Shown one piece after another: positions 3,397 to 19,655 of a stretch of 48,374 nucleotides of DNA; position 1 is the stretch's first letter, and each line of letters opens with the position of its first letter. Source of the stretch: an uncultured Candidatus Saccharibacteria bacterium (GTDB lineage Bacteria > Patescibacteriota > Minisyncoccia > Portnoybacterales > UBA2143); NCBI GenBank assembly GCA_964439515.1, contig CAYTNU010000002.1, forward strand, positions 9,877-58,250. Direction: 5' to 3'. Under the pieces are notes generated by a model that had not been told where the DNA came from, searched no databases, and was given only the letters and a program-made list of their open reading frames with translations. The position numbers and the translations under genes are program-made.

Positions 3397-3963
3397 ATGA
3401 TTGCTTTACTTAAAGGTAAAATTGAATTAAAAGAAAATAGGTTTGTAATTGTTGATGTTAAAGGAGTGGGGTATAAGGTATATTGTCCTGCGCCTATTTT
3501 AGAAAAACTAATTCTTAAACAAGAAGTTAAATTATTTATTCATCTTTATCATAGAGAAAATATTTTAGACCTATATGGATTTTTAAATATTGATGAATTA
3601 GAATTTTTTGAGCTTTTGATTTCTATTAGTGGGATTGGGCCTAAGGCAGCATTATCTGTTTTATCAATTGCTTCAATAAAAAATCTTAAAGCATCAATTG
3701 CCAGTGGACGCGTTGATCTATTAACTAAGGTTTCTGGTATTGGCAAGAAAACAGCTGAAAGAGTTATCTTAGAATTAAGAAGCAAGATTTTGGTTTCTGG
3801 TTCAGAAGTTAAAAAATTAGTTTCTGATGATGAGGTTGTTGATGCTTTGGTTGGATTAGGATATACCAAATATCAAGTTCATGATGCTTTGAAACAAGTT
3901 CCGGAAAGAATAAAAGATATAGAGAGTAGAATTAAAGAGGTTTTGAAGATTCTGGGGAAATGA
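3397..3963 (+). CDS. ruvA: Holliday junction branch-migration protein RuvA
   Basis: MIALLKGKI..VDVKGVGYKVY OB-fold start. Two HhH motifs (ISGIGPKAA, VSGIGKKTAERV). C-terminal domain III. Confidence 0.9.
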   Translation: MIALLKGKIELKENRFVIVDVKGVGYKVYCPAPILEKLILKQEVKLFIHLYHRENILDLYGFLNIDELEFFELLISISGIGPKAALSVLSIASIKNLKASIASGRVDLLTKVSGIGKKTAERVILELRSKILVSGSEVKKLVSDDEVVDALVGLGYTKYQVHDALKQVPERIKDIESRIKEVLKILGK

Positions 3964-5037: not shown

Positions 5038-6353
5038 TTATATTAGAAAGCTTATTGAAATTAGGTAAGCGGATTATTCCTCAGCCAATATTTAATTTTT
5101 TTCAGCCAATATATCATCTTCTATTGATTATGCTGGCTGTTTTTTGGTATCGTTTTCCTTCTCGTAAGATGAAAATAATTGGGGTGACTGGTACTAACGG
5201 CAAATCAACAGCAATTTATTTGATCAGTCAAATTTTAGAGCAAGGCGGTTATAATGTGGCTGCTTTTTCTTCAATTGAATTTAAAATTAAAGATAAGATT
5301 TGGAAAAATGATTTAAAAATGACTATGCCTGGTAGATTTAAACTTCAGAAGCTTTTGCGTCAAGCGTATAAAGCAGGTTGTGAATATGTTGTTTTAGAAG
5401 TAACTTCAGAAGGTATTAAACAACATCGTCATCGTTTTATTGGTTTTGACATTGCTGTTTTAACTAATTTAACTGAAGAACACTTAGAAAGTCATGGAGG
5501 GTTTGAAAAGTATAAGCAAGCTAAATCAAAACTTTTTCAAATGTTAAAACTTAAAGGTAGTGCAATTGTTAATTTAGACGATCTTAATGCTGAATATTTT
5601 TTACAGTTTCCAGCTAAAGAAAAATGGGGTTATGGGATAGATTTTGAATCATCAACAGAAGTTAATCAAACCGTTAAAGCAAGCGATTATCAATTAAGCA
5701 AAAAAGGCATTAGCTTTAGAGTTGATGGTCAAGATTTTGATGTGAATTTATTGGGTAAATTTAATTTACATAATATTTTAGCAGCTATAAGTGTTGGGCT
5801 GATTGAAGGAATTAGTTTAGATAAAATTAAATTAGCATTAGAAAAAGTTAATAGTATTTCAGGACGATTAGAAATAGTTATTAAAAATCCTTTTATGGTT
5901 ATAGTTGATTATGCTCATACTCCTGATGCTTTAGAAAAAGTTTATCAAATGATTAGAGAATTATTTTCTAGCTCGCCTGATGGTGGAACAAGAAGGATAA
6001 TTGGTGTATTAGGGGCTGCTGGTGGGGGACGAGATAAATGGAAGCGTGTTGAATTTGGTAAAATTGCTGAAAAATATTTAGATAAGATTATCATCGCCAA
6101 CGAAGATCCATACAATGAAGATCCTCAGGCAATTATAGATGATATTGCTAAAGGTTTAAAAAATAGATTAGCTGAAAAATTCATTGATAGAAGAGAAGCA
6201 ATTCATAGAGCATTAGAATCAGCTCAAGATGGAGATATTGTAATTATTACTGGTAAAGGATGTGAATCATGGCTTTGCGTAGATAAAGGTAAAAAAATTG
6301 CTTGGGATGATAGAAAAATAGTTAAGGAGGAAATGAAAAAAATTTCTAATTAA
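5034..6353 (+). CDS. murE: Mur ligase family protein, MurE-like (UDP-MurNAc-tripeptide synthetase)
   Basis: P-loop GVTGTNGKST, plus EVTSEG, LTNLTEEHLESHGG and DYAHTPDALEKV. Its ATGA overlaps the upstream stop. The N-terminal domain is short. Confidence 0.8.
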   Translation: MIILESLLKLGKRIIPQPIFNFFQPIYHLLLIMLAVFWYRFPSRKMKIIGVTGTNGKSTAIYLISQILEQGGYNVAAFSSIEFKIKDKIWKNDLKMTMPGRFKLQKLLRQAYKAGCEYVVLEVTSEGIKQHRHRFIGFDIAVLTNLTEEHLESHGGFEKYKQAKSKLFQMLKLKGSAIVNLDDLNAEYFLQFPAKEKWGYGIDFESSTEVNQTVKASDYQLSKKGISFRVDGQDFDVNLLGKFNLHNILAAISVGLIEGISLDKIKLALEKVNSISGRLEIVIKNPFMVIVDYAHTPDALEKVYQMIRELFSSSPDGGTRRIIGVLGAAGGGRDKWKRVEFGKIAEKYLDKIIIANEDPYNEDPQAIIDDIAKGLKNRLAEKFIDRREAIHRALESAQDGDIVIITGKGCESWLCVDKGKKIAWDDRKIVKEEMKKISN

Positions 6354-9771: not shown

Positions 9772-10398
9772 ATGAAGATAAAGATAAATAAAGTAATTAA
9801 AATTTTAATTTTTTCTGATGTCGCCTTAGTTGGTGGGTTCGGTTTTATTACTCCTATCTTCGCTATTTTTTTAACAGAGAGGATTAGAGGAGGTAATGTA
9901 GAAATTGCTGGTTATGTTGCTGCTATTTATTGGATTGTTATGTCTTTAATGGTTATTCCTTTTGGAAAATATCTGGATAAAAATCATGGAGAAAAAGATG
10001 ATTTTTGGTTTATTGTTATTGGTAACATCTTAGCTTCCTTAGCTGTAATTGGATTTATTTTTTCTTTTTTACCTTGGCATATATATATTTTTCAAGTTTT
10101 TTATGCCTTTGGTATGAGTATGAACATAGCTGCTTACTCAGCTATATTTACTAGACATATTAGTAAGGGGAGAGAAGCATTCAGTTGGAGTATTAGGGCT
10201 TGTTTGATTGGTTTTTCTGCCGGAATTACAGGTGCTATTGGAGGAATAATCGCTAATCGTTTTGGTTTTACTATGCTTTTAATTTGTGTATTGTTTTTTG
10301 TTTTGATTAGTTCTTTAGTACCATTTTTTATTTATAAAAGTATTTTTTCGAAGAATAAAAAAGATTTAAGGATACCAAAAATTAAAGAAATCAAATAA
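9772..10398 (+). CDS. polytopic membrane protein (MFS-like six-helix half)
   Basis: About six hydrophobic helices. No other motif recognised. Confidence 0.5.
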   Translation: MKIKINKVIKILIFSDVALVGGFGFITPIFAIFLTERIRGGNVEIAGYVAAIYWIVMSLMVIPFGKYLDKNHGEKDDFWFIVIGNILASLAVIGFIFSFLPWHIYIFQVFYAFGMSMNIAAYSAIFTRHISKGREAFSWSIRACLIGFSAGITGAIGGIIANRFGFTMLLICVLFFVLISSLVPFFIYKSIFSKNKKDLRIPKIKEIK

Positions 10399-12117: not shown

Positions 12118-12483
12118 ATGTCTTTAAAGGTTAAAAATTGGGTTTTAGTTTTTATTTGGGCTAGTTTTATCTTTTTTCTTTCTCATCAACCCTTTCTTAA
12201 ATCTGGTCTTCCTAGTCAATGGGATTTTATTTTACGAAAAATAGCTCATATTAGCGAATATGCTATTCTAACATGGCTTTTAATAAGAGCCTTAAAAGAA
12301 TATGGATTAACTAATAGGAAAATTTTGATTTTAGCTATTAGTCTATCTTTTTTGTATGCTTTTTCCGATGAATATCATCAAACTTTTATTTTTGGACGTC
12401 AAGGAGCATTTAGAGATGTTTTTATAGATAGTGTGGGGATTTTAATTACTAGCCAACTAGCTAGAAATAAGAAAATACCATAG
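12118..12483 (+). CDS. VanZ-family membrane protein
   Basis: Four helices. KIAHISEYAIL and SDEYHQ motifs typical of VanZ. Confidence 0.7.
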   Translation: MSLKVKNWVLVFIWASFIFFLSHQPFLKSGLPSQWDFILRKIAHISEYAILTWLLIRALKEYGLTNRKILILAISLSFLYAFSDEYHQTFIFGRQGAFRDVFIDSVGILITSQLARNKKIP

Positions 12484-12498
12484 AATAAGGATAGTCAA

Positions 12499-13170
12499 AT
12501 GAGTAATCATTTAATAATTAAAATATCTAAAATTTTTCAAGCATTTACTTATTGGCCTATTTATTTAACGTTAAGATTTTTTGTTCGTTTTGAAATTTAT
12601 GGACAAGAAAATTTAAAAGGACTTGAAAATGGACCAATTATTTTTGCTTCAAATCATTCTAATTATTTAGACAGTCCAATTAATGCGGCAATAATGCCTC
12701 GTTATAAAGGGGAGTTTTATCCAAAAAGATTTTTTCCTATTAGATTTTTAGCTCATTCTAAATTTTTTAAATTTAGATATTTATTAGTTGCTTTATACGT
12801 TTGGATAAATGCTTCTATAAAGATACAAGCAAATACTGGAAAAGATTTGTCCATAACGCTTAGAGAAGCGATTGATGCTTTAAAAAATAATAATCATATT
12901 TGGATTTATCCAGAAGGTAGAATATCACAGAATGTTCGATTTAAAGAAGGCAAGCGTGGTATTGCTTATTTACATCAACAAACTGGCGCGCTAATTGTTC
13001 CAGTATTTATCAGGGGAACATTTGGAATCTTGTCTTTTAAAACTTTATTGCGTAGAAAAAAAGTAATAGCCATGATTGGAGCTCCCATTTATTCTTTAGA
13101 GAATTTTTCATTAGAACAGGCAACAGAAAAAATTATGTTATCAATTGTAGAATTATCTAAAAAACATTAA
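12499..13170 (+). CDS. plsC: lysophospholipid (1-acyl-glycerol-3-phosphate) acyltransferase-like
   Basis: HX4D motif (NHSNYLD) and a YPEGRIS block. Confidence 0.75.
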   Translation: MSNHLIIKISKIFQAFTYWPIYLTLRFFVRFEIYGQENLKGLENGPIIFASNHSNYLDSPINAAIMPRYKGEFYPKRFFPIRFLAHSKFFKFRYLLVALYVWINASIKIQANTGKDLSITLREAIDALKNNNHIWIYPEGRISQNVRFKEGKRGIAYLHQQTGALIVPVFIRGTFGILSFKTLLRRKKVIAMIGAPIYSLENFSLEQATEKIMLSIVELSKKH

Positions 13171-13174
13171 TAAT

Positions 13175-13669
13175 ATGAGTAAACATTTAATATCTAAAAT
13201 TGGAGTAGGAGCGTTGATTATTGATAAAGAAAATAATTCTATTTTATTGAGCAAAAAGAATTATGGACCAATAAAAGACAAATGGACTTTTCCTGAAGGA
13301 TATGTTGATAAATATGAATCTTTAATTGAAGCAATAAAGAGAGAAATGAAAGAAGAATTAAATGGAGATATAGAAGTAAATGATTTGGTCGCTGTTCGTT
13401 ATAGGAGATCAAAAAAGAATCCAACGGTTTATTTTGTTTTTAATTGTTTATTATTAAATAAAGAAGAATTAAAAATAAACGATAAAGAGGAAATAAATGA
13501 TTTTAAGTTTTTTAATATTGAACAAGCTGAAGAAAGTCCAGAAATTTATTCTTTGGTTAAGATAATTTTAAATAAATATAAAAATAATTCAAACTCTAAT
13601 TTTAAAAAAGCTGATTTTTTTCCTTCGGAGATGAAAGTAAGTAAAAACGATTATTTCTTATATTTATAA
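13175..13669 (+). CDS. NUDIX hydrolase
   Basis: Nudix box: PEGYVDKYESLIEAIKREMKEELNG. Confidence 0.8.
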   Translation: MSKHLISKIGVGALIIDKENNSILLSKKNYGPIKDKWTFPEGYVDKYESLIEAIKREMKEELNGDIEVNDLVAVRYRRSKKNPTVYFVFNCLLLNKEELKINDKEEINDFKFFNIEQAEESPEIYSLVKIILNKYKNNSNSNFKKADFFPSEMKVSKNDYFLYL

Positions 13670-13673
13670 TAAT

Positions 13674-14438
13674 ATGGAATCTTTCTTAAAAGAAACTAAA
13701 TATTGTGATTTTAATAATTTAAAAATTAAAGAATTAGCTTTTGATATAACTAAAAATATAAACGATGATAAAAACAAAGCAATCGCTTTATTCTATTATG
13801 TAAGAGATAGCATATTATATAGAGTTGGAAATTGGAACAAAAAAGCATCGGAAACATTATTAGAGGGGAAGGGAGTATGTACTAGTAAATCAAATCTTTT
13901 AATCGCCTTATTGAGATCGTTGGGGATACCAGCTGGATATGGCGTAATGCGTGTAAAGGGAAAAGAGTATTTTGGAAACATAGTCCCATTATTTTTTAGA
14001 GACAAGATAGGGAAAGAATCTATTCATATTTATGTTTATGTGTATCTAAATAACAGATGGATAAAATGTGATCCATCTGATGATAAAAGATTTTCAGAAA
14101 ATACTAGCTATTTTAATCCACAAAGCAAATTAGTAGATTGGAATGGCGAAAATGATGCAATCTTAAATTTAAATCCAAATCATATTTTAGAAGATAGCAA
14201 TGTCTTAGATAATATAGATGATATTATTTGTAAAGAGCCTAAAAATGCAAAAGGGATTATTTTGAATTTAGGAAATCTTTATATAGATTTTTTAAGATGG
14301 AATGATAAAAGAATTAATAATTTAGATGAGCTGGATTTTTTGTTTAAAAAGTGGTTAAAGAAAAATCATATATTATATTATTATTTTTACATTATAGGAG
14401 TTTGGTTTAGAGATAAAAGAAGTAATAAATTATGTTAG
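13674..14438 (+). CDS. transglutaminase-like cysteine peptidase superfamily protein
   Basis: GKGVCTSKSNLLIALLRSLGIPA (catalytic Cys), ..HIYVYVY.. (His) and ..KCDPSD (Asp) give the order expected for a transglutaminase core. Confidence 0.7.
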   Translation: MESFLKETKYCDFNNLKIKELAFDITKNINDDKNKAIALFYYVRDSILYRVGNWNKKASETLLEGKGVCTSKSNLLIALLRSLGIPAGYGVMRVKGKEYFGNIVPLFFRDKIGKESIHIYVYVYLNNRWIKCDPSDDKRFSENTSYFNPQSKLVDWNGENDAILNLNPNHILEDSNVLDNIDDIICKEPKNAKGIILNLGNLYIDFLRWNDKRINNLDELDFLFKKWLKKNHILYYYFYIIGVWFRDKRSNKLC

Positions 14439-16081
14439 ATATTTATACATGGTCTGTTCTTATAGTGGCTGTATTTTTTACTGTTTTTGGATCTTTTTCT
14501 TATCTTAGGAATAGGAAAGAATTGATGAACAAGCTTTTTGCGTTGCTCTCTTTGGCATTTGCAATGTGGAGTTATACTTGGTTCGCTTTGCTTCTTACTA
14601 GAGAAAATGAGCAAATCGCTTTCTTATGGGCAAGATTATTAAATATTGGAGCAATATTTATTCCTATATTTTATTTTCACTGGGTTTTATCTCTTTTAGA
14701 TTTACATAAAAAGAAAAAGATTTTAGTAATATCTGGTTATCTTGTTACATTATTATTTTTTGTTCTTAGTTTTTCTGATAAATATGTAACGGGTGTTCAT
14801 TCTATACTTTCTTTTCCTTTTTGGCCTACTGCAGGGCCTTTGTATAAATGGTTTTTAATATTTGGATACTTATGTATGGTTGGTTATTCTTTATATTTAC
14901 TATTTAAAGCATTTAATAAAAGCGAAGGAGAAAAAAAATATCAAATTGGATATGTTATTATTGGTTCTTTGATGGGATTCGGTGGAGGAGCAATGAATTT
15001 TCCTTTGATGTATAACATAGATATAATTCCTCCATTTGGTGTTTTTGCTATTATCGCTTGTCCATTAATTCTTAGTTATGCAGTAATTAAATATCATTTA
15101 ATGAACACAAAAGTTGCTACGGTTGAAATTCTTAGCGCTTTAATATCTGCCGTTTTGCTTGTTGATGCTCTATTGTCTTCGGGTACAGAATTTTATTTAA
15201 AATTCGGTCTTTTTATTGGAGTTGTTATATTCAGTATAATTTTAATCCATAGTGTTTTAAAAGAAACTAGGTCTAGAGAGAAAATTATTAAATTAGCAAA
15301 GAGTTTGAAAAAGGCTAATATTGAATTACAAAAATTAGACAAAGCAAAATCAGAATTCATTTCTATTGCTTCTCACCAATTAAGAACTCCAGTATCAGTA
15401 ATAAAAGGGATTACCTCTATGATGATTGAAGGAGATTTAGAAAAATTTCCTATAGAAAAAAAGAATAGGTTTATTGAGGGGCTGTGGAATAAAAGTTGTA
15501 AATTAGAAAATATTATTAATGACATTCTTAATGCTACAGAAATGACGAATTTTAAATATAGAGTTAAAAAAGAAAAAGCTGAATTAATTGATTTAGAAGA
15601 ATTGATTAAAAAAACAATTAGTGATTTTCAATCAATTATAAAGAAAAAAGGTGTGGATGTTATTTTAAAAAAATCTATAAAATCTTTACCGAGGATAAAT
15701 GGACAAAAACAATATCTTCAAGAAGCATTTAGTAATTTAATAGATAATGCTATTAAATATACTTCCTCTAAAGGAAAGATTGTTATATCCATTACAAAAA
15801 AAGAAAATAATGTTATCATATCTATAGAGGATAATGGCATTGGAATTCCTAAAGAAGAAATTCCTGGATTGTTTATAAAGTTCATAAGAGGTAGTAATGC
15901 GAGGGAAATGTACACAGATGGTTCTGGACTAGGACTTTTTATAGTTAGAGAAGTTATTGAAGGACATTATGGTAAAGTATGGATGGAAAGCGAACTTAAT
16001 AAGGGAACAACTTTTTTTATCAGTCTGCCAATTCATTCTTCTAAAAAAATTAATGTTAAAAATCATATTATAAATGACTAA
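14432..16081 (+). CDS. sensor histidine kinase with multi-helix membrane sensor domain
   Basis: About seven N-terminal TM helices, an H-box (SIASHQLRTP), an N-box (LIDNAIKYT), and G-boxes (DNGIGIP, GSGLGL). Confidence 0.9.
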   Translation: MLDIYTWSVLIVAVFFTVFGSFSYLRNRKELMNKLFALLSLAFAMWSYTWFALLLTRENEQIAFLWARLLNIGAIFIPIFYFHWVLSLLDLHKKKKILVISGYLVTLLFFVLSFSDKYVTGVHSILSFPFWPTAGPLYKWFLIFGYLCMVGYSLYLLFKAFNKSEGEKKYQIGYVIIGSLMGFGGGAMNFPLMYNIDIIPPFGVFAIIACPLILSYAVIKYHLMNTKVATVEILSALISAVLLVDALLSSGTEFYLKFGLFIGVVIFSIILIHSVLKETRSREKIIKLAKSLKKANIELQKLDKAKSEFISIASHQLRTPVSVIKGITSMMIEGDLEKFPIEKKNRFIEGLWNKSCKLENIINDILNATEMTNFKYRVKKEKAELIDLEELIKKTISDFQSIIKKKGVDVILKKSIKSLPRINGQKQYLQEAFSNLIDNAIKYTSSKGKIVISITKKENNVIISIEDNGIGIPKEEIPGLFIKFIRGSNAREMYTDGSGLGLFIVREVIEGHYGKVWMESELNKGTTFFISLPIHSSKKINVKNHIIND

Positions 16082-16457
16082 TAATATAAAAATATTACTC
16101 GTTGAAGACGATCCTGATCAAATTCTTATTTATCAAAGTAAATTTGAATTAGAAGGTTTCTTTTTGATAGTGGCTGATAATTATAAAGATGCGATAAAAT
16201 TTGCTTTATATGATAAACCAGATTTGATTATGTTGGATTTACTTTTAGGAAATGAAAACGGTCTTGATGTTTTAGATGAACTTAAAAAAAATTCTAAGAC
16301 CAGTAAAATTCCAGTAGTTGTTTTTACTAATTTTGATACAGAAGAAACTAAAGATAAGGCATTCAAATTAGGAGCAATTGATTATATTGTAAAGGCTCAA
16401 GTTACTCCAAGTGAAATTGTTAAAAAAGTAAGAATGATAATAGAGAAATTTAAATAA
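16074..16457 (+). CDS. single-domain response regulator (receiver only)
   Basis: ILLVEDDPDQ, DLIMLDLLL, and a VFTNF..K pattern. Overlaps the kinase gene by 8 nt. Confidence 0.9.
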   Translation: MTNNIKILLVEDDPDQILIYQSKFELEGFFLIVADNYKDAIKFALYDKPDLIMLDLLLGNENGLDVLDELKKNSKTSKIPVVVFTNFDTEETKDKAFKLGAIDYIVKAQVTPSEIVKKVRMIIEKFK

Positions 16458-16552
16458 CATGTTTCATTTTCCACAAAAAACATCTTTTGGATTAGATCTA
16501 AGTGATCTTTCTTTTAAAATTGTACAATTTAAAAAAAAGAAAGATGGTTTAT
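16446..16552 (+). repeat. left copy of an exact 107-bp direct repeat (RR stop plus first 31 codons of pilM)
   Basis: Base-for-base identical to 18596-18702 by manual alignment, at an offset of 2150 bp. Confidence 0.9.
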
Positions 16553-16602
16553 ATGTCCGTGGATGTATGCAGTGGGTTGACAATACACTGTTTTCTTGTT
16601 AG
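16459..16602 (+). pseudogene. pilM 5' remnant (31 pilM codons fused to 16 unrelated codons, then TAG)
   Basis: MFHFPQKTSFGLDLSDLSFKIVQFKKKKDGL is identical to the intact PilM N-terminus at 18609. It then diverges (YVRGCMQWVDNTLFSC*). Confidence 0.8.
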
Positions 16603-16605
16603 AAT
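16577..16605 (+). promoter_or_regulatory. consensus sigma70-like promoter (TTGACA-17 nt-TGtTAGAAT)
   Basis: TTGACA at 16577-16582, a 17-nt spacer ending in an extended -10 TG, then TAGAAT at 16600-16605. It sits 75 nt upstream of the ATP-grasp ATG. Confidence 0.6.
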
Positions 16606-16679
16606 TTAAGCAGAACATTAAAATTCAAAAGAACAGAAACATAAAAATAATCATCTATGGTTAAGGGAGGTGTGTTGAA

Positions 16680-17648
16680 ATGATATTAATTTTGACGAAT
16701 AAAATGGATGCTCATACGGATATAGTCATTGAAAAATTACACAAACGCGGGCTGGATTTTTTCAGGTGGAATATAGAGGATTTTTTGACTGAACATGGTT
16801 TTGAAATAGAAATTGAAAACGGTTGTGTAAAAAATCTAATGTTATCGGCAGAAGACAGAAATATAGATTTAGTAAAAGATGTTTCTGTGGTATGGTATAG
16901 AAGACCCGGAAAATTAGTTATTTCAGAAGCAGTTAAAGATGAAGGGTATATAGAATTCGGGTTAAGAGAAGCAAAATTTCTGTTAAATAATGTTTGGAGA
17001 TTGTTAGAAGATAAAACTTGGATAAATAATCCTTTTGAAAACAGTCAGATTGACAACAAACTTTATCAACTTAGTTTGGCTGCGAAATTAGGATTGGAAA
17101 CTCCTCATAGTTTTGTGACTAACAAGAAAAAAGAGGCCTATAATTTTATAGAGAAATATGGTGATGTGGTTGTGAAAGCAATATCGGTAGGACATGTCAA
17201 TCAAGAAAGAGGATTTAAAAACATATATACTCATAAAATTGAGGCAGATGACTTGAGTAAATTGGATTCCGTTGAGTTAGCGCCGACACTATTTCAACTA
17301 AATGTCCCAAAACAAATTGAGTTAAGAATTACGGTTATAGAAGATAGTGTTTTTTCATGTGCTATTGAATCTCAAAAATCAGAAAAAAGCAAACAAGACT
17401 GGAGGAGATATGACTTTGAAAATGTTCCTCATTATCCCTATGAAGTGCCAGAAGAAATTGAGCAAAAATTGATTGAATTTCTTCGCGTTTCGGGTTTAAA
17501 ATATGGAGCATTTGATATGGTGCTAACACCTGATGATAGATATGTTTTTCTTGAATTAAATCCCAATGGGCAGTGGTATTGGATAGAACATTTAACAGGT
17601 TTAAAGATTACAGATAAGTTGATTGATTTATTCGCAAAATACTTATAA
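16680..17648 (+). CDS. RiPP ATP-grasp macrocyclase, MdnC/MvdD (microviridin/graspetide) type
   Basis: 322 aa with SD GGGAGGTG at 16665-16672. Blocks VSVVWYRR, LYQLSLAAKLGLETP, IELRITVIEDSVF, KQDWRRY and LKYGAFDMVLTPDDRYVFLELNPNGQWYWIE parallel MdnC/MvdD blocks as I recall them. Confidence 0.85.
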   Translation: MILILTNKMDAHTDIVIEKLHKRGLDFFRWNIEDFLTEHGFEIEIENGCVKNLMLSAEDRNIDLVKDVSVVWYRRPGKLVISEAVKDEGYIEFGLREAKFLLNNVWRLLEDKTWINNPFENSQIDNKLYQLSLAAKLGLETPHSFVTNKKKEAYNFIEKYGDVVVKAISVGHVNQERGFKNIYTHKIEADDLSKLDSVELAPTLFQLNVPKQIELRITVIEDSVFSCAIESQKSEKSKQDWRRYDFENVPHYPYEVPEEIEQKLIEFLRVSGLKYGAFDMVLTPDDRYVFLELNPNGQWYWIEHLTGLKITDKLIDLFAKYL

Positions 17649-17664
17649 AAAGGAGGTGAGGCAA

Positions 17665-17844
17665 ATGAATCAAATTCCTTTTGCGGCGCAGTTTGCGGAA
17701 GACGTTCCAGAAATAAACATGAGTGGTATATATGATCCTAAACTACAAATGTTTTTACCGGAAAGTAAATCTTTTGAAGCGGGGCATACTACGACAGAAA
17801 CGGCAACTGGTGGTTGGAATGATACCGATAGTGATGTCGATTAG
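17665..17844 (+). CDS. graspetide precursor peptide (59 aa; core ..HTTTETATGGWNDTDSDVD)
   Basis: ATG 17665 lies 5 nt after the SD AAGGAGGTGA (17650-17659) and 16 nt after the ATP-grasp stop. The leader has IPFAAQFAED (compare microviridin PFFARFL). The C-terminus is Thr-rich followed by Asp-rich. A terminator follows directly. Confidence 0.75.
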   Translation: MNQIPFAAQFAEDVPEINMSGIYDPKLQMFLPESKSFEAGHTTTETATGGWNDTDSDVD

Positions 17845-17869
17845 CTTGTTCTTTCGCATAACTGTAAAT

Positions 17870-17905
17870 ATTAGCCGCAATAAAAAAATTGCGGCTAATT
17901 TTTTA
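17870..17905 (+). terminator. rho-independent terminator after the precursor gene
   Basis: A perfect 12-bp stem, ATTAGCCGCAAT-AAAAAA-ATTGCGGCTAAT, followed by TTTTT. Confidence 0.85.
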
Positions 17906-17914
17906 ATAAATAAA

Positions 17915-18517
17915 ATGAAAAACAATAATCGTGTTAAAATTAATAATCTTTTAAATGAGCGTCGATATGGCGATGCTTTGTTGCTGTTGGAAAAAGGCAT
18001 CAAAGGGGAAAAGGATAACGATGAGTTATGTAGAAAATATGTTTTGTTAGGATGGCTTTATGATCAATGGGCTTTGAACGTTGAAAAACGAATAACCAAG
18101 AAATATCAAAAATTGGCGGAGAAATATTTTAATTTGGCTCTTGGATATAAAAAAACAAAATATGACGCTACGAGAGGATTGGCTACGGTTCTAATGCATC
18201 AGGAAAAATATGATTTGGCAATGATTTATTACAAAAAAGCCCATAGATTAAAGAAATCTTTTGATACTTACAATGATTTGGGAAATATTTATCAAAAGAT
18301 AAATAAACGCAAAACGGCAATTACTAATTACGAAAAGGCCTTTTGTTTGAGAAAGAACAAAGAGGAAGCGACTATCCCTTGTTTTAATATGATTGTGATT
18401 AGCAAGAAAGCGGGAGACAACGCGACGGAAAAGAAGTATACGGACATTTTAAAAAAACTTGCCAAAAAGTTTGGTTTGGCGAAAATGATGTTTGAAAGAT
18501 TAGATAAAGTGAAATAA
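17915..18517 (+). CDS. TPR-repeat protein (200 aa)
   Basis: Repeated TPR-like helices (YDLAMIYYKKAHRL, YNDLGNIYQKINKRKTAITNYEKAF, AEKYFNLALGY). The start is set at ATG 17915, because the track's longer ORF (17723) overlaps the precursor gene and the terminator. Confidence 0.65.
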   Translation: MKNNNRVKINNLLNERRYGDALLLLEKGIKGEKDNDELCRKYVLLGWLYDQWALNVEKRITKKYQKLAEKYFNLALGYKKTKYDATRGLATVLMHQEKYDLAMIYYKKAHRLKKSFDTYNDLGNIYQKINKRKTAITNYEKAFCLRKNKEEATIPCFNMIVISKKAGDNATEKKYTDILKKLAKKFGLAKMMFERLDKVK

Positions 18518-18570
18518 CATAAAGGACATAAAGGGGTCAGGATCCTTTTTATTAGGGATTTTTTAAGCAC

Positions 18571-18599
18571 TTGGCTTAATAAGAAAAAAATGATAAAAT
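18571..18599 (+). promoter_or_regulatory. possible promoter at the right island junction (TTGGCT-17 nt-TGaTAAAAT)
   Basis: TTGGCT at 18571-18576, a 17-nt spacer ending in TGA, then TAAAAT at 18594-18599. It lies just upstream of pilM and straddles the start of the right repeat copy. Confidence 0.3.
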
Positions 18600-18702
18600 T
18601 TAAATAACATGTTTCATTTTCCACAAAAAACATCTTTTGGATTAGATCTAAGTGATCTTTCTTTTAAAATTGTACAATTTAAAAAAAAGAAAGATGGTTT
18701 AT
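18596..18702 (+). repeat. right copy of the exact 107-bp direct repeat
   Basis: Identical to 16446-16552. Contains the start of the intact pilM. Confidence 0.9.
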
Positions 18703-19655
18703 GTCTGTCTAGTTTTATTAAACAAGATATTCCTAAAGGATTAGTTGAAGAAGGAGAGATAAAAAAAGAAAAAGAATTAATTGATATTTTAAAAAAAACT
18801 TTGATTAAAATGAAGGTAGGGAAGAGAGTGGTTTGTAATCTGCCAGAAGAAAAAGTTTTTATTCGAATTATTCAATTGCCGAAAATGAAAGAAAGCGAAT
18901 TAGAAAAAGCAATTAATTGGGAGGCTGAAGCCAATATTCCATTAGTTATTGATGAAGCATATTTAGGATGGCAAGTTATTGATCCAATTTTTGAACATAT
19001 TGATCATCTTGATATTTTGATCGCAGCTGCTCCTCGAACATTAGTAGATAATTATTTAAGTTTTTTAAGGAAAAGCGGACTTGAACCAATAGCATTAGAA
19101 CCAGAATCAGCTTCTATAATTAGAAGTATAATGACTAAAGATGATTTAACGCCAAGTATTATTGTTGACCTAGGGGCAGTGGGATCAAATTTTGTTATAT
19201 TTTCTGCTTTAGCAATACGCTTTACTTCTCATATAAAGATTTCTGGTCAACTTTTTAATAAAGCAATAATGAAAGAATTAAAAGTAAGTGAAAAAGAAGC
19301 TGATAAATTAAAAATTAATGTTGGATTAGATAAGAAAAAAGAAAAAGGAATGGTTTATAATGCATTAGAACCAATTATTGATGATTTAGCTAAGCAGATT
19401 AATGATTATATTGTCTTTTATCATGAACACGCTACTCATGTTCATGGTCCAGATGGAGCGATAGGACAGATAATTCTTTGTGGAGGTGATTCTTTATTAT
19501 TAAATCTACCTGAATTATTAAGTGAAAAATTAAAGTTACCAGTTAAAATGGGCAATTCTTTAATTAATGTTTCATCAAAAGGTATATCTCTTCCTAAGAA
19601 AGAATCTTTTACATACGCCACTGCAATAGGACTAGCCTTAAAAGAATTCTTATAA
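18609..19655 (+). CDS. pilM: type IV pilus assembly ATPase-fold protein PilM
   Basis: Actin/FtsA-like fold pattern (GLDLS.., ..DLGAVGSNF.., ..ILCGGDS..). It sits upstream of PilN/PilO-like genes. Confidence 0.85.
   Translation: MFHFPQKTSFGLDLSDLSFKIVQFKKKKDGLCLSSFIKQDIPKGLVEEGEIKKEKELIDILKKTLIKMKVGKRVVCNLPEEKVFIRIIQLPKMKESELEKAINWEAEANIPLVIDEAYLGWQVIDPIFEHIDHLDILIAAAPRTLVDNYLSFLRKSGLEPIALEPESASIIRSIMTKDDLTPSIIVDLGAVGSNFVIFSALAIRFTSHIKISGQLFNKAIMKELKVSEKEADKLKINVGLDKKKEKGMVYNALEPIIDDLAKQINDYIVFYHEHATHVHGPDGAIGQIILCGGDSLLLNLPELLSEKLKLPVKMGNSLINVSSKGISLPKKESFTYATAIGLALKEFL

Follow-up and report, generated by a model that had tools for sequence, protein, structure and literature searches.

Graspetide clusters of the candidate phyla radiation (CPR) were already reported by Makarova et al. 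2022 (Biol Direct 17:7, PMC8939145), who placed them in two CPR branches of the ATP-grasp tree and described a leader motif Phhx(1,2)h, a core TxxxTx(6-10)Dx(1-4)D and frequent tetratricopeptide repeat (TPR) neighbours whose role was considered 'unclear'. For CPR branch 1, the criterion in that survey (PMC8939145) was the leader motif Phhx(1,2)h within the first 30 residues, with a TPR or cluster-23 neighbour. Further graspetide groups from candidate phyla, together with the first partner-dependent synthetases, were described by Carter et al. 2026 (PMC13097080). Here we analyse a stretch of 48,374 nt (the window) of contig CAYTNU010000002.1 (GCA_964439515.1, forward-strand positions 9,877 to 58,250), labelled as an uncultured Candidatus Saccharibacteria bacterium and placed by GTDB in the lineage Patescibacteriota; Minisyncoccia; Portnoybacterales; UBA2143. 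It carries a trio of genes for an ATP-grasp ligase, a 59-residue precursor peptide and a TPR protein, which very likely constitutes a functional graspetide cassette, that is, a source of an ω-ester peptide that is synthesized by the ribosome and modified after translation (RiPP), inserted where VanZ meets pilM in a Portnoybacteria-like chromosome of the Patescibacteria.

The locus keeps the traits of the CPR branch 1 clusters: a CPR host, a single ligase, a neighbouring small precursor and an adjacent TPR gene, with a leader segment P5-F-A-A-Q-F10 that fits Phhx(1,2)h and a core T42-x3-T46-x6-D53-x-D55 that fits TxxxTx(6-10)Dx(1-4)D. A previous sequence-only reading of this DNA had presented RiPP biosynthesis as rarely reported in CPR genomes and the locus as a new ecological angle, a claim that is overstated given that the 2022 survey described such clusters and that the window fits them in leader, core and TPR neighbour. 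The precursor family of the window, with its ETxTGGxxDTD signature, was not found in the searched part of the supplements of Makarova 2022 and Carter 2026, which does not prove its absence from them; in the part of the Makarova supplements covered, the nearest entry to the window precursor is the Giovannonibacteria cluster1472, with ...TVQTTVYATGKYGADSKSDPD. A literature search for graspetides in combination with tetratricopeptide proteins returned nothing relevant.

Among the characterized systems, the microviridin and chryseoviridin synthetases (MdnB/MdnC, CdnC) are the closest solved relatives of the window ligase, and the PFxxxF motif of the window leader resembles the microviridin PFFARFL. 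Unlike in microviridins, the window core has no TxKxPSDx(E/D)(D/E), Lys or PSD, there is no Lys amide, second ligase, GNAT or ABC transporter, and the ligase misses the MvdC and MvdD cut-offs. In plesiocin, one ligase (PsnB) makes hairpin-like nested esters, and the innermost ring of its TTxxxxEE core spans donor-x4-acceptor, as predicted for the window peptide; plesiocin has, however, adjacent donors, adjacent Glu acceptors and repeated motifs, whereas the window peptide alternates TxT...DxD, with Asp acceptors and one core copy. The graspimiditides amycolimiditide and albusimiditide are also alike in their nested-hairpin Thr-Asp esters, equal stem spacing and rungs two residues apart, and in the case of albusimiditide equal stem spacing correctly predicted the ladder T19-D32, T17-D34, T11-D40 and T9-D42. 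Their PIMT-type O-methyltransferase is absent from 16446-18702, so no aspartimide would be expected in the window product, whose loop GGWN has no Asp-Gly; moreover, their loop has 12 residues and their host is an actinomycete, in contrast with the four-residue loop, CPR host and purely predicted connectivity of the window peptide. Finally, the rosaritide pair MirB-MirC (Carter et al. 2026, PMC13097080) offers a precedent for a strictly co-occurring, non-enzymatic partner needed by the ligase, although that partner is PpiC-like and not a TPR protein, and the existence of orphan TPR genes speaks against obligate pairing in the family of the window.

Cassette layout, expression signals and host

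The three open reading frames (ORFs) and the signals between them, namely the Shine-Dalgarno (SD) sequence, the 16-nt spacing and the terminator, lie at the same coordinates that the sequence-only reading had proposed. The cassette comprises:

16577-16605, plus strand: promoter, TTGACA, 17 nt, TAGAAT with an extended -10 TG; 11/12 positions match
16680-17648, plus strand: graspetide synthetase (RiPP ATP-grasp macrocyclase), 322 aa; PF21068 plus a RimK-type ATP-grasp domain, TIGR04187, CdnC
17665-17844, plus strand: precursor peptide, 59 aa; ATG 16 nt after the ligase stop, core from about codon 41 (17785-17841)
17866-17903, plus strand: intrinsic terminator between the precursor and TPR genes; inverted repeat and T-run
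17915-18517, plus strand: TPR accessory protein, 200 aa; Pfam TPR_1/TPR_2 above threshold, 11 helices, about five TPR units, no signal peptide

Promoter-like matches across the whole region are no commoner than in shuffled sequence, and the promoter call is credited because the site is conserved in a related copy of the cassette, carried at 83% DNA identity by Candidatus Portnoybacteria contigs from NCBI, ENA, JGI and Logan samples (L007-L012; for example, L010 1351-2294 aligned with window 16574-18090). Homology with these contigs starts at 16574, 3 nt before the -35 hexamer, so the promoter would be part of the mobile unit. The proposal of a self-contained cluster with its own promoter is thus borne out. 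In the terminator (17870-17899), a 12-bp stem without mismatches encloses a loop of 6 nt and precedes a T-run. In this arrangement, the single promoter would drive the ligase and precursor genes, whereas only read-through would probably reach the TPR gene beyond the strong terminator. As had also been pointed out, the cassette has no second ligase, GNAT or ABC exporter; it encodes neither a leader peptidase nor an exporter, so leader removal and export would be either supplied by the host or absent.

The EF-G protein of the window has its nearest named sequences in the Patescibacteria group and Candidatus Portnoybacteria (81-86% identity). By this comparison the host is a member of the CPR/Patescibacteria with Candidatus Portnoybacteria as its nearest named group, in agreement with the CPR host previously claimed. 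The rest of the window is of housekeeping nature (a ribosomal protein operon, SecY, DnaE, LigA, ThrRS, a Mur ligase, FemAB and pilMNO). No integrase, transposase or recombinase gene was found in the 48 kb, the cassette region shows no Rfam family and no minus-strand ORF of note, and PADLOC gave no defence-system match in that region apart from a weak generic TPR match. The organism recurs in many ENA assemblies and in one JGI metagenome: the island has 0-2 mismatches (plus one gap in one contig) in 10/10 contigs compared, each from a different metagenome assembly, and all 16 contigs recorded with the window ligase belong to places that show the intact trio. The window's own genome was not among the species-representative genomes scanned, and the best match there is 61% identical.

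The ATP-grasp ligase

The ligase ORF is preceded by GGGAGGTG. Some gene callers choose an alternative start that gives 314 residues, a choice made less likely by the way in which homologues start, MLLILSNKLDAHTD. The MvdD pre-ATP-grasp domain PF21068 is recognized with 49.3 bits against a gathering score of 27, and the Pfam RimK ATP-grasp domain covers the C-terminal half with 32 bits. Among the NCBIfam models, the ligase scores 263 bits with TIGR04187, 228 with MvdC (TIGR04185), 213 with MvdD (TIGR04184) and 157 with the grasp-with-spasm model, compared with 46 bits for RimK and about 16 for glutathione synthase. The top solved relatives, graspetide synthetases without exception, align along the full length (residues 2-317): CdnC (7mgv, 5e-47), the microviridin-type ligases 5ig8/5ig9 (about 1e-44) and AMdnB (7m4s, 1e-43); PsnB (7drm) gives a weak match of 2.6e-10. 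These alignments (1e-43 to 5e-47) verify the block-by-block likeness to microviridin ligases that the sequence-only reading had pointed out. Moreover, residues K166, E214, R216, D279 and E292-x-N294, the putative ATP/Mg-binding residues expected of an ATP-grasp enzyme, are invariant in 28 aligned homologues.

The precursor and its predicted product

The precursor ATG at 17665 lies behind AAAGGAGGTGA, a consensus SD sequence. The 59 codons encode MNQIPFAAQFAEDVPEINMSGIYDPKLQMFLPESKSFEAGHTTTETATGGWNDTDSDVD, a peptide that ends in HTTTETATGGWNDTDSDVD, with two leader motifs (IPFAAQFAEDV and GIYDPKLQMF) followed by a core, TTTETATGGWNDTDSDVD, that holds Thr/Ser donors and Asp/Glu acceptors. A 59-aa gene with the same spacing after the ligase and the same leader motifs is found in two other genomes (L013-L019), whose ligases are 61-63% identical to that of the window and whose core, HTITETQTGGWNDTDSDVD, is nearly identical. 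Comparison of core codons 41-59 between the window and L013 revealed 11 differences, nine synonymous and two non-synonymous, and by this count the core is under purifying selection. The precursor is also conserved beside the ligase at seven other locus types, and scoring it against 1.84 billion representative proteins gave 11 short relatives of the same design, to which mining of the loci added more. From this conservation, the 59-codon precursor gene is taken as real and, next to a ligase of the RiPP clade, as its conserved cognate, which upholds the identification as a graspetide cluster made from the sequence alone.

The succession of T-x-T, a loop of four residues (mostly GGxx) and D-x-D is common to all 17 family members, and the window core extends this pattern to TxTxTxT-GGWN-DxDxDxD, that is, T42xT44xT46xT48-GGWN-D53xD55xD57xD59. 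When cross-strand pairs were counted in the hairpin register over the 17 members, the ester-capable ones, in window numbering, were distributed as follows:

48/53: 17/17
46/55: 17/17
45/56 (Glu facing Ser/Thr): 13/17
44/57: 11/17
42/59: 12/17
43/58: 0/17
47/54: 4/17

Positions 44 and 57 are jointly lost in L030 and L121, and positions 42 and 59 in P0262. Altogether, this pattern suggests a product folded as a tight nested β-hairpin ladder with two to five esters (-36 to -90 Da), a prediction made because the rule of equal stem spacing had correctly anticipated the four-ester ladder of albusimiditide. The predicted rungs are T48-D53 and T46-D55, invariant in the family, and, further out in the window peptide, T44-D57 and T42-D59; E45-S56, located on the opposite hairpin face and with its polarity reversed, could give a fifth ester.

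In the biosynthesis proposed here, the PFxxxF motif of the leader, which corresponds to the microviridin PFFARFL, would be the site of ligase binding, and the second conserved leader motif, G-x-Y-D-x-x-L-Q, would probably contribute to it. The enzyme would then phosphorylate the Asp side chains of the core, and attack by the Thr hydroxyls would give side-chain esters; Asp phosphorylation followed by Thr attack is the established chemistry of the graspetide family. That the product would act as a protease inhibitor is extrapolated from what other graspetide groups do.

The TPR companion protein

Homologues of the TPR protein, 16 clusters in all, make up a small family whose genes adjoin those of the ligase and precursor in three arrangements:

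ligase-precursor-TPR: window, L014, L016
precursor-TPR-ligase: L030, L031
precursor-ligase-TPR: L044

The linkage survives rearrangement, and therefore the TPR protein would have a functional tie to the ligase and precursor. The AlphaFold model (predicted local distance difference test score of 93) consists of 11 helices, and neither Pfam nor the model gives any sign of an output or DNA-binding domain. TPR proteins that a search of the PDB with this model retrieved include consensus TPR designs, BtubC, APC subunits, MamA and PilF/PilW. The protein is most likely a companion that binds the peptide, whether to assist the ligase or, in an immunity-like manner, to sequester or sense the product.

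Orphan homologues, 42-82% identical to the window protein, were observed at L114 272-883, L115 1757-2362, L116 3118-3711, L117 4001-4576 and L118 3358-3867; after the TPR gene of L114 come a histidine-kinase 3'-end fragment and a radical-SAM/SPASM cluster. In CPR graspetide loci that are more distant (ligase 37-38% identical), the place beside the ligase is taken by a DUF6624 protein instead of the TPR protein of the window (L034 4536-5024 and L037 2532-3071). A relationship between the TPR protein and DUF6624 was ruled out by hhalign (probability 0.1%).

The role other than assistance to the ligase is the alternative that survives best, although it is less likely than not. In it, the TPR protein would be an immunity-like or receptor binder of the mature peptide and the trio a producer-plus-protector or peptide-plus-receptor module. 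It draws on the TPR genes that stay intact where ligase and precursor are deleted or absent (L007-L012, L114, L115/L116, L117 and L118), which is the survival pattern of orphan immunity genes, on the strong terminator that parts the TPR gene from the ligase-precursor unit, and on the classical binding of extended peptides by TPR domains. On the other hand, the characterized graspetides are all protease inhibitors with no dedicated immunity gene, according to a review, and the protein has no output or DNA-binding domain; genomes with an orphan TPR gene could hold a ligase or precursor elsewhere, and since partner-dependent graspetide synthetases exist (MirC), a biosynthetic role keeps its plausibility.

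Insertion at the VanZ-pilM junction

The cassette sits between two copies of a perfect direct repeat made of host sequence. The features around it are:

16446-16552, no strand: left copy of the 107-nt direct repeat, 100% identity, spacing 2150
16459-16602, plus strand: truncated pilM' ORF, 47 aa; codons 1-31 identical to pilM, then junction and promoter DNA
16553-16573, no strand: junction segment from repeat to cassette, ending ...GCAGTGGG
18553-18607, plus strand: remnant of the ancestral VanZ 3' end, closing with STWLNKKKMIKFK and a stop; matches intact VanZ ends in L023 and L111
18596-18702, no strand: right copy of the 107-nt repeat, overlapping the start of intact pilM (18609-19655)
12444-16445, plus strand: upstream context segment, missing together with the cassette from L023 and L111

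In the left repeat copy, the 12 nt that close the response-regulator gene, which equal the ancestral VanZ end (AAATTTAAATAA), are followed by 1 nt and by the opening 94 nt of pilM; the pilM' stub arose as a by-product of the duplication. The remnant at 18553-18607 translates as ..WLNKKKMIKFK followed by a stop, and its persistence implies that VanZ once abutted pilM in the window lineage. In this line, a co-occurring strain with an identical PilM (L023) has VanZ directly upstream and misses the 6.1-kb block 12444-18552, and in a more distant relative (L111, EF-G 88% identical) VanZ is also next to pilM (window 12444-18552 compared with L023 1-9047 and L111 1131-2578). Left and right flanks of L023 are 95% and 99.6% identical to the window, respectively, a disparity that suggests inter-strain recombination at the VanZ-pilM junction, seemingly an insertion hot spot.

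From these comparisons, the cassette is an insertion that was horizontally acquired. The horizontal acquisition claimed by the sequence-only reading therefore stands, on the 107-nt flanking repeat, on the cassette-free strain and relative, and on the same trio in unrelated contexts. The location next to pilus genes, mentioned in that reading, is literally true but incidental, as elsewhere the family sits at histidine-kinase 3' ends or after tRNA-Gln. Base composition was discarded as a strong sign of foreign origin, with 32.7% GC in the cassette against 26.5-29.7% in the flanks, only about 3-6 points. Regarding the mechanism, the cassette plus one repeat (2150 bp, VanZ remnant included) would have come as a circle or a linear fragment, and the anatomy of the site suggests that this unit would have carried a copy of the VanZ end and pilM start and recombined within the 107-nt segment. 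The junction segment 16553-16573 may be a leftover of an earlier histidine-kinase 3'-end context as seen in L007, although this connection is a weak one.

The segment 12444-16445 encodes an alternative VanZ 3' end, a PlsC-type acyltransferase, a NUDIX protein, a transglutaminase-core protein, a histidine kinase and a stand-alone receiver. Some assemblies of the same organism (L001, L002, L025 and L026) carry between the acyltransferase and NUDIX genes an extra 198-aa gene (e.g., L001 1684-2280), an insertion of about 0.8 kb at a site corresponding to window positions ~13170-13175, where the window does not have it; the product has no Pfam match, and the gene marks a second site, a few kb away from the cassette, at which presence varies. 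The transglutaminase-core protein, with a cysteine-protease fold, is encoded at 13674-14438, 2.2 kb upstream of the cassette and within the co-variable block, and its gene does not accompany the trio at other loci. Transglutaminase-type folds, possibly peptidases, were noted in some graspetide groups by Carter et al. 2026 (PMC13097080).

Related cassettes and their possible mobility

Other Patescibacteria genomes also hold the trio, in unrelated contexts; at every locus with both flanks in view, it lies between direct repeats (63-119 nt elsewhere) at a near-equal spacing of about 2.17-2.2 kb. The repeats found outside the window are:

L044 (Ryanbacteria metagenome-assembled genome), 3488-3606 and 5687-5805: 119-nt repeat, 99% identity, spacing 2199; histidine-kinase 3' end
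L016, 4704-4766 and 6878-6940: 63-nt repeat, 89% identity, spacing 2174
L014, 176-209, 2257-2390, 3266-3392 and 4048-4119: repeats separating the trio, a RimK-type ligase gene and a NYN gene
L007, 4404-4499 and 5583-5678: 96-nt histidine-kinase 3'-end repeat flanking a RhuM gene just before the cassette

The array of L014 sits downstream of a tRNA-Gln gene (L013 4578-4650) and of a second copy of the tRNA 3' end. No integrase was seen near the repeat-flanked loci of these genomes. The inter-unit repeat of the arrays (L016 4738-4845, L014 2290-2395) folds as single strand into a long imperfect hairpin (z-scores -3.6 to -3.9), in which GGTTCTAACG(TTG)TCCAC pairs with GTGGACGTTAGAAC around a terminator stem-loop in an attC-like manner. 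The L014 and L016 arrays are nevertheless not called integrons because they break off at CCAGC(C)A, with only the left half of the attC-like repeat present, and because intI was not observed. The ends of the window cassette have no convincing similarity to these att-like repeats, and an integron cassette was rejected for the window itself, where the repeat derives from the host's own VanZ end and pilM start and where no integrase is encoded in the 48 kb. A literature search on integrons in Patescibacteria returned nothing relevant.

A broader proposal, rather unlikely at present, is that the trio forms a recombinase-less mobile cassette of about 2.15-2.2 kb that spreads among Patescibacteria through insertion at conserved host gene ends and whose TPR protein serves as an immunity-like binder. 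Insertion would duplicate 60-120 nt of the target, so far histidine-kinase 3' ends, the VanZ-pilM junction and sites downstream of tRNA-Gln, and tandem arrays with other single-gene units would follow. Under this proposal, TPR genes would outlive the ligase because their product binds the ester-stapled hairpin as an immunity-like protein. If true, episymbionts would harbour a mobile producer-plus-protector module.

Weighing of the evidence

Several observations weigh against a functional graspetide cassette acquired by insertion and yielding the predicted product. The ligase falls below the curated NCBIfam cut-offs (263 against 350 for TIGR04187, 228 against 425 for MvdC and 213 against 475 for MvdD) and, because all three are missed, it is by its scores a member of the RiPP-maturase clade that lies outside the curated subfamilies. 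Protease and transporter genes are absent from the cassette, so a secreted, leader-free product is not assured. Covariation between the strands is imperfect, with four family members having D57 opposite V or I at position 44, and the number and connectivity of the esters are predictions. With regard to the TPR protein, the search of the PDB returned only generic TPR proteins, which point to no particular function, and homologues are intact without a ligase within 2-4 kb in four contexts (L114, L115/L116, L117 and L118), which argues against a strictly biosynthetic role. An empty site joining the response-regulator gene to pilM was not found: 23/23 contigs with the exact response-regulator protein carry the cassette, and a look-up of PilM gave one variant, L023, that lacks the 6.1 kb rather than the cassette alone. 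As neither a recombinase nor that empty site was found, the insertion mechanism is a conjecture. Finally, the closest copy, the 83%-identical one from Portnoybacteria, has a clean 580-bp deletion (window 17292-17871) that removed the 3' third of the ligase gene and the whole precursor and joins straight to the terminator stem; the stem-loop is retained at the joint and the TPR gene is intact. Cassettes of this family do therefore decay.

This last copy is one of the reasons to consider the cassette of the window as a recent, unexpressed or decaying passenger, with no mature graspetide made in this genome, along with the missing leader peptidase and exporter, the co-occurring strain without the cassette and the perfect repeat that implies a recent arrival. 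Such an outcome seems improbable, given that no damage is seen in any of the three ORFs, in the promoter, in either SD sequence or in the terminator, that the near-invariant island and the intact trio hold throughout the 10/10 and 16/16 contigs mentioned above, and that the precursor core is under purifying selection family-wide. As for a RimK/glutathione-synthetase-type enzyme of primary metabolism next to a chance 59-codon ORF, suggested by the Pfam RimK domain in the C-terminal half and the JGI label 'glutathione synthase/RimK-type ligase-like' of the ligase homologues, this reading has practically no chance of being correct and can be regarded as already refuted by the sequence comparisons, with the best RiPP-maturase score more than 200 bits above that of RimK, an MvdD-specific N-terminal domain, graspetide synthetases as all top solved relatives and a small ORF that is conserved, syntenic and under purifying selection; the RimK or glutathione-synthetase clustering that the sequence-only reading had set as its refuting test was thus not seen (213-263 bits for the RiPP models against 46).

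Biological meaning

Both CPR graspetides and the TPR proteins beside them had been published before, and the locus opens no new class of biology; the fresh part would be the behaviour as a mobile cassette. It constitutes a clean, minimal and tractable example of a CPR graspetide system, with three genes in about 2 kb under one promoter, and it supplies a specific structural prediction, a hairpin with a four-residue loop, two invariant ester rungs and up to three further ones. The role of the TPR companion, left open by the 2022 survey, is now framed as a defined question, for which the population offers natural controls in the form of a cassette-free strain, an internally deleted copy and orphan TPR genes. 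These orphan genes and the behaviour of the repeat-bracketed, recombinase-less cassette are, in our view, the aspects that deserve most attention, and the repeat-flanked layout hints at how ultra-small genomes without obvious mobile-element genes may swap accessory functions.

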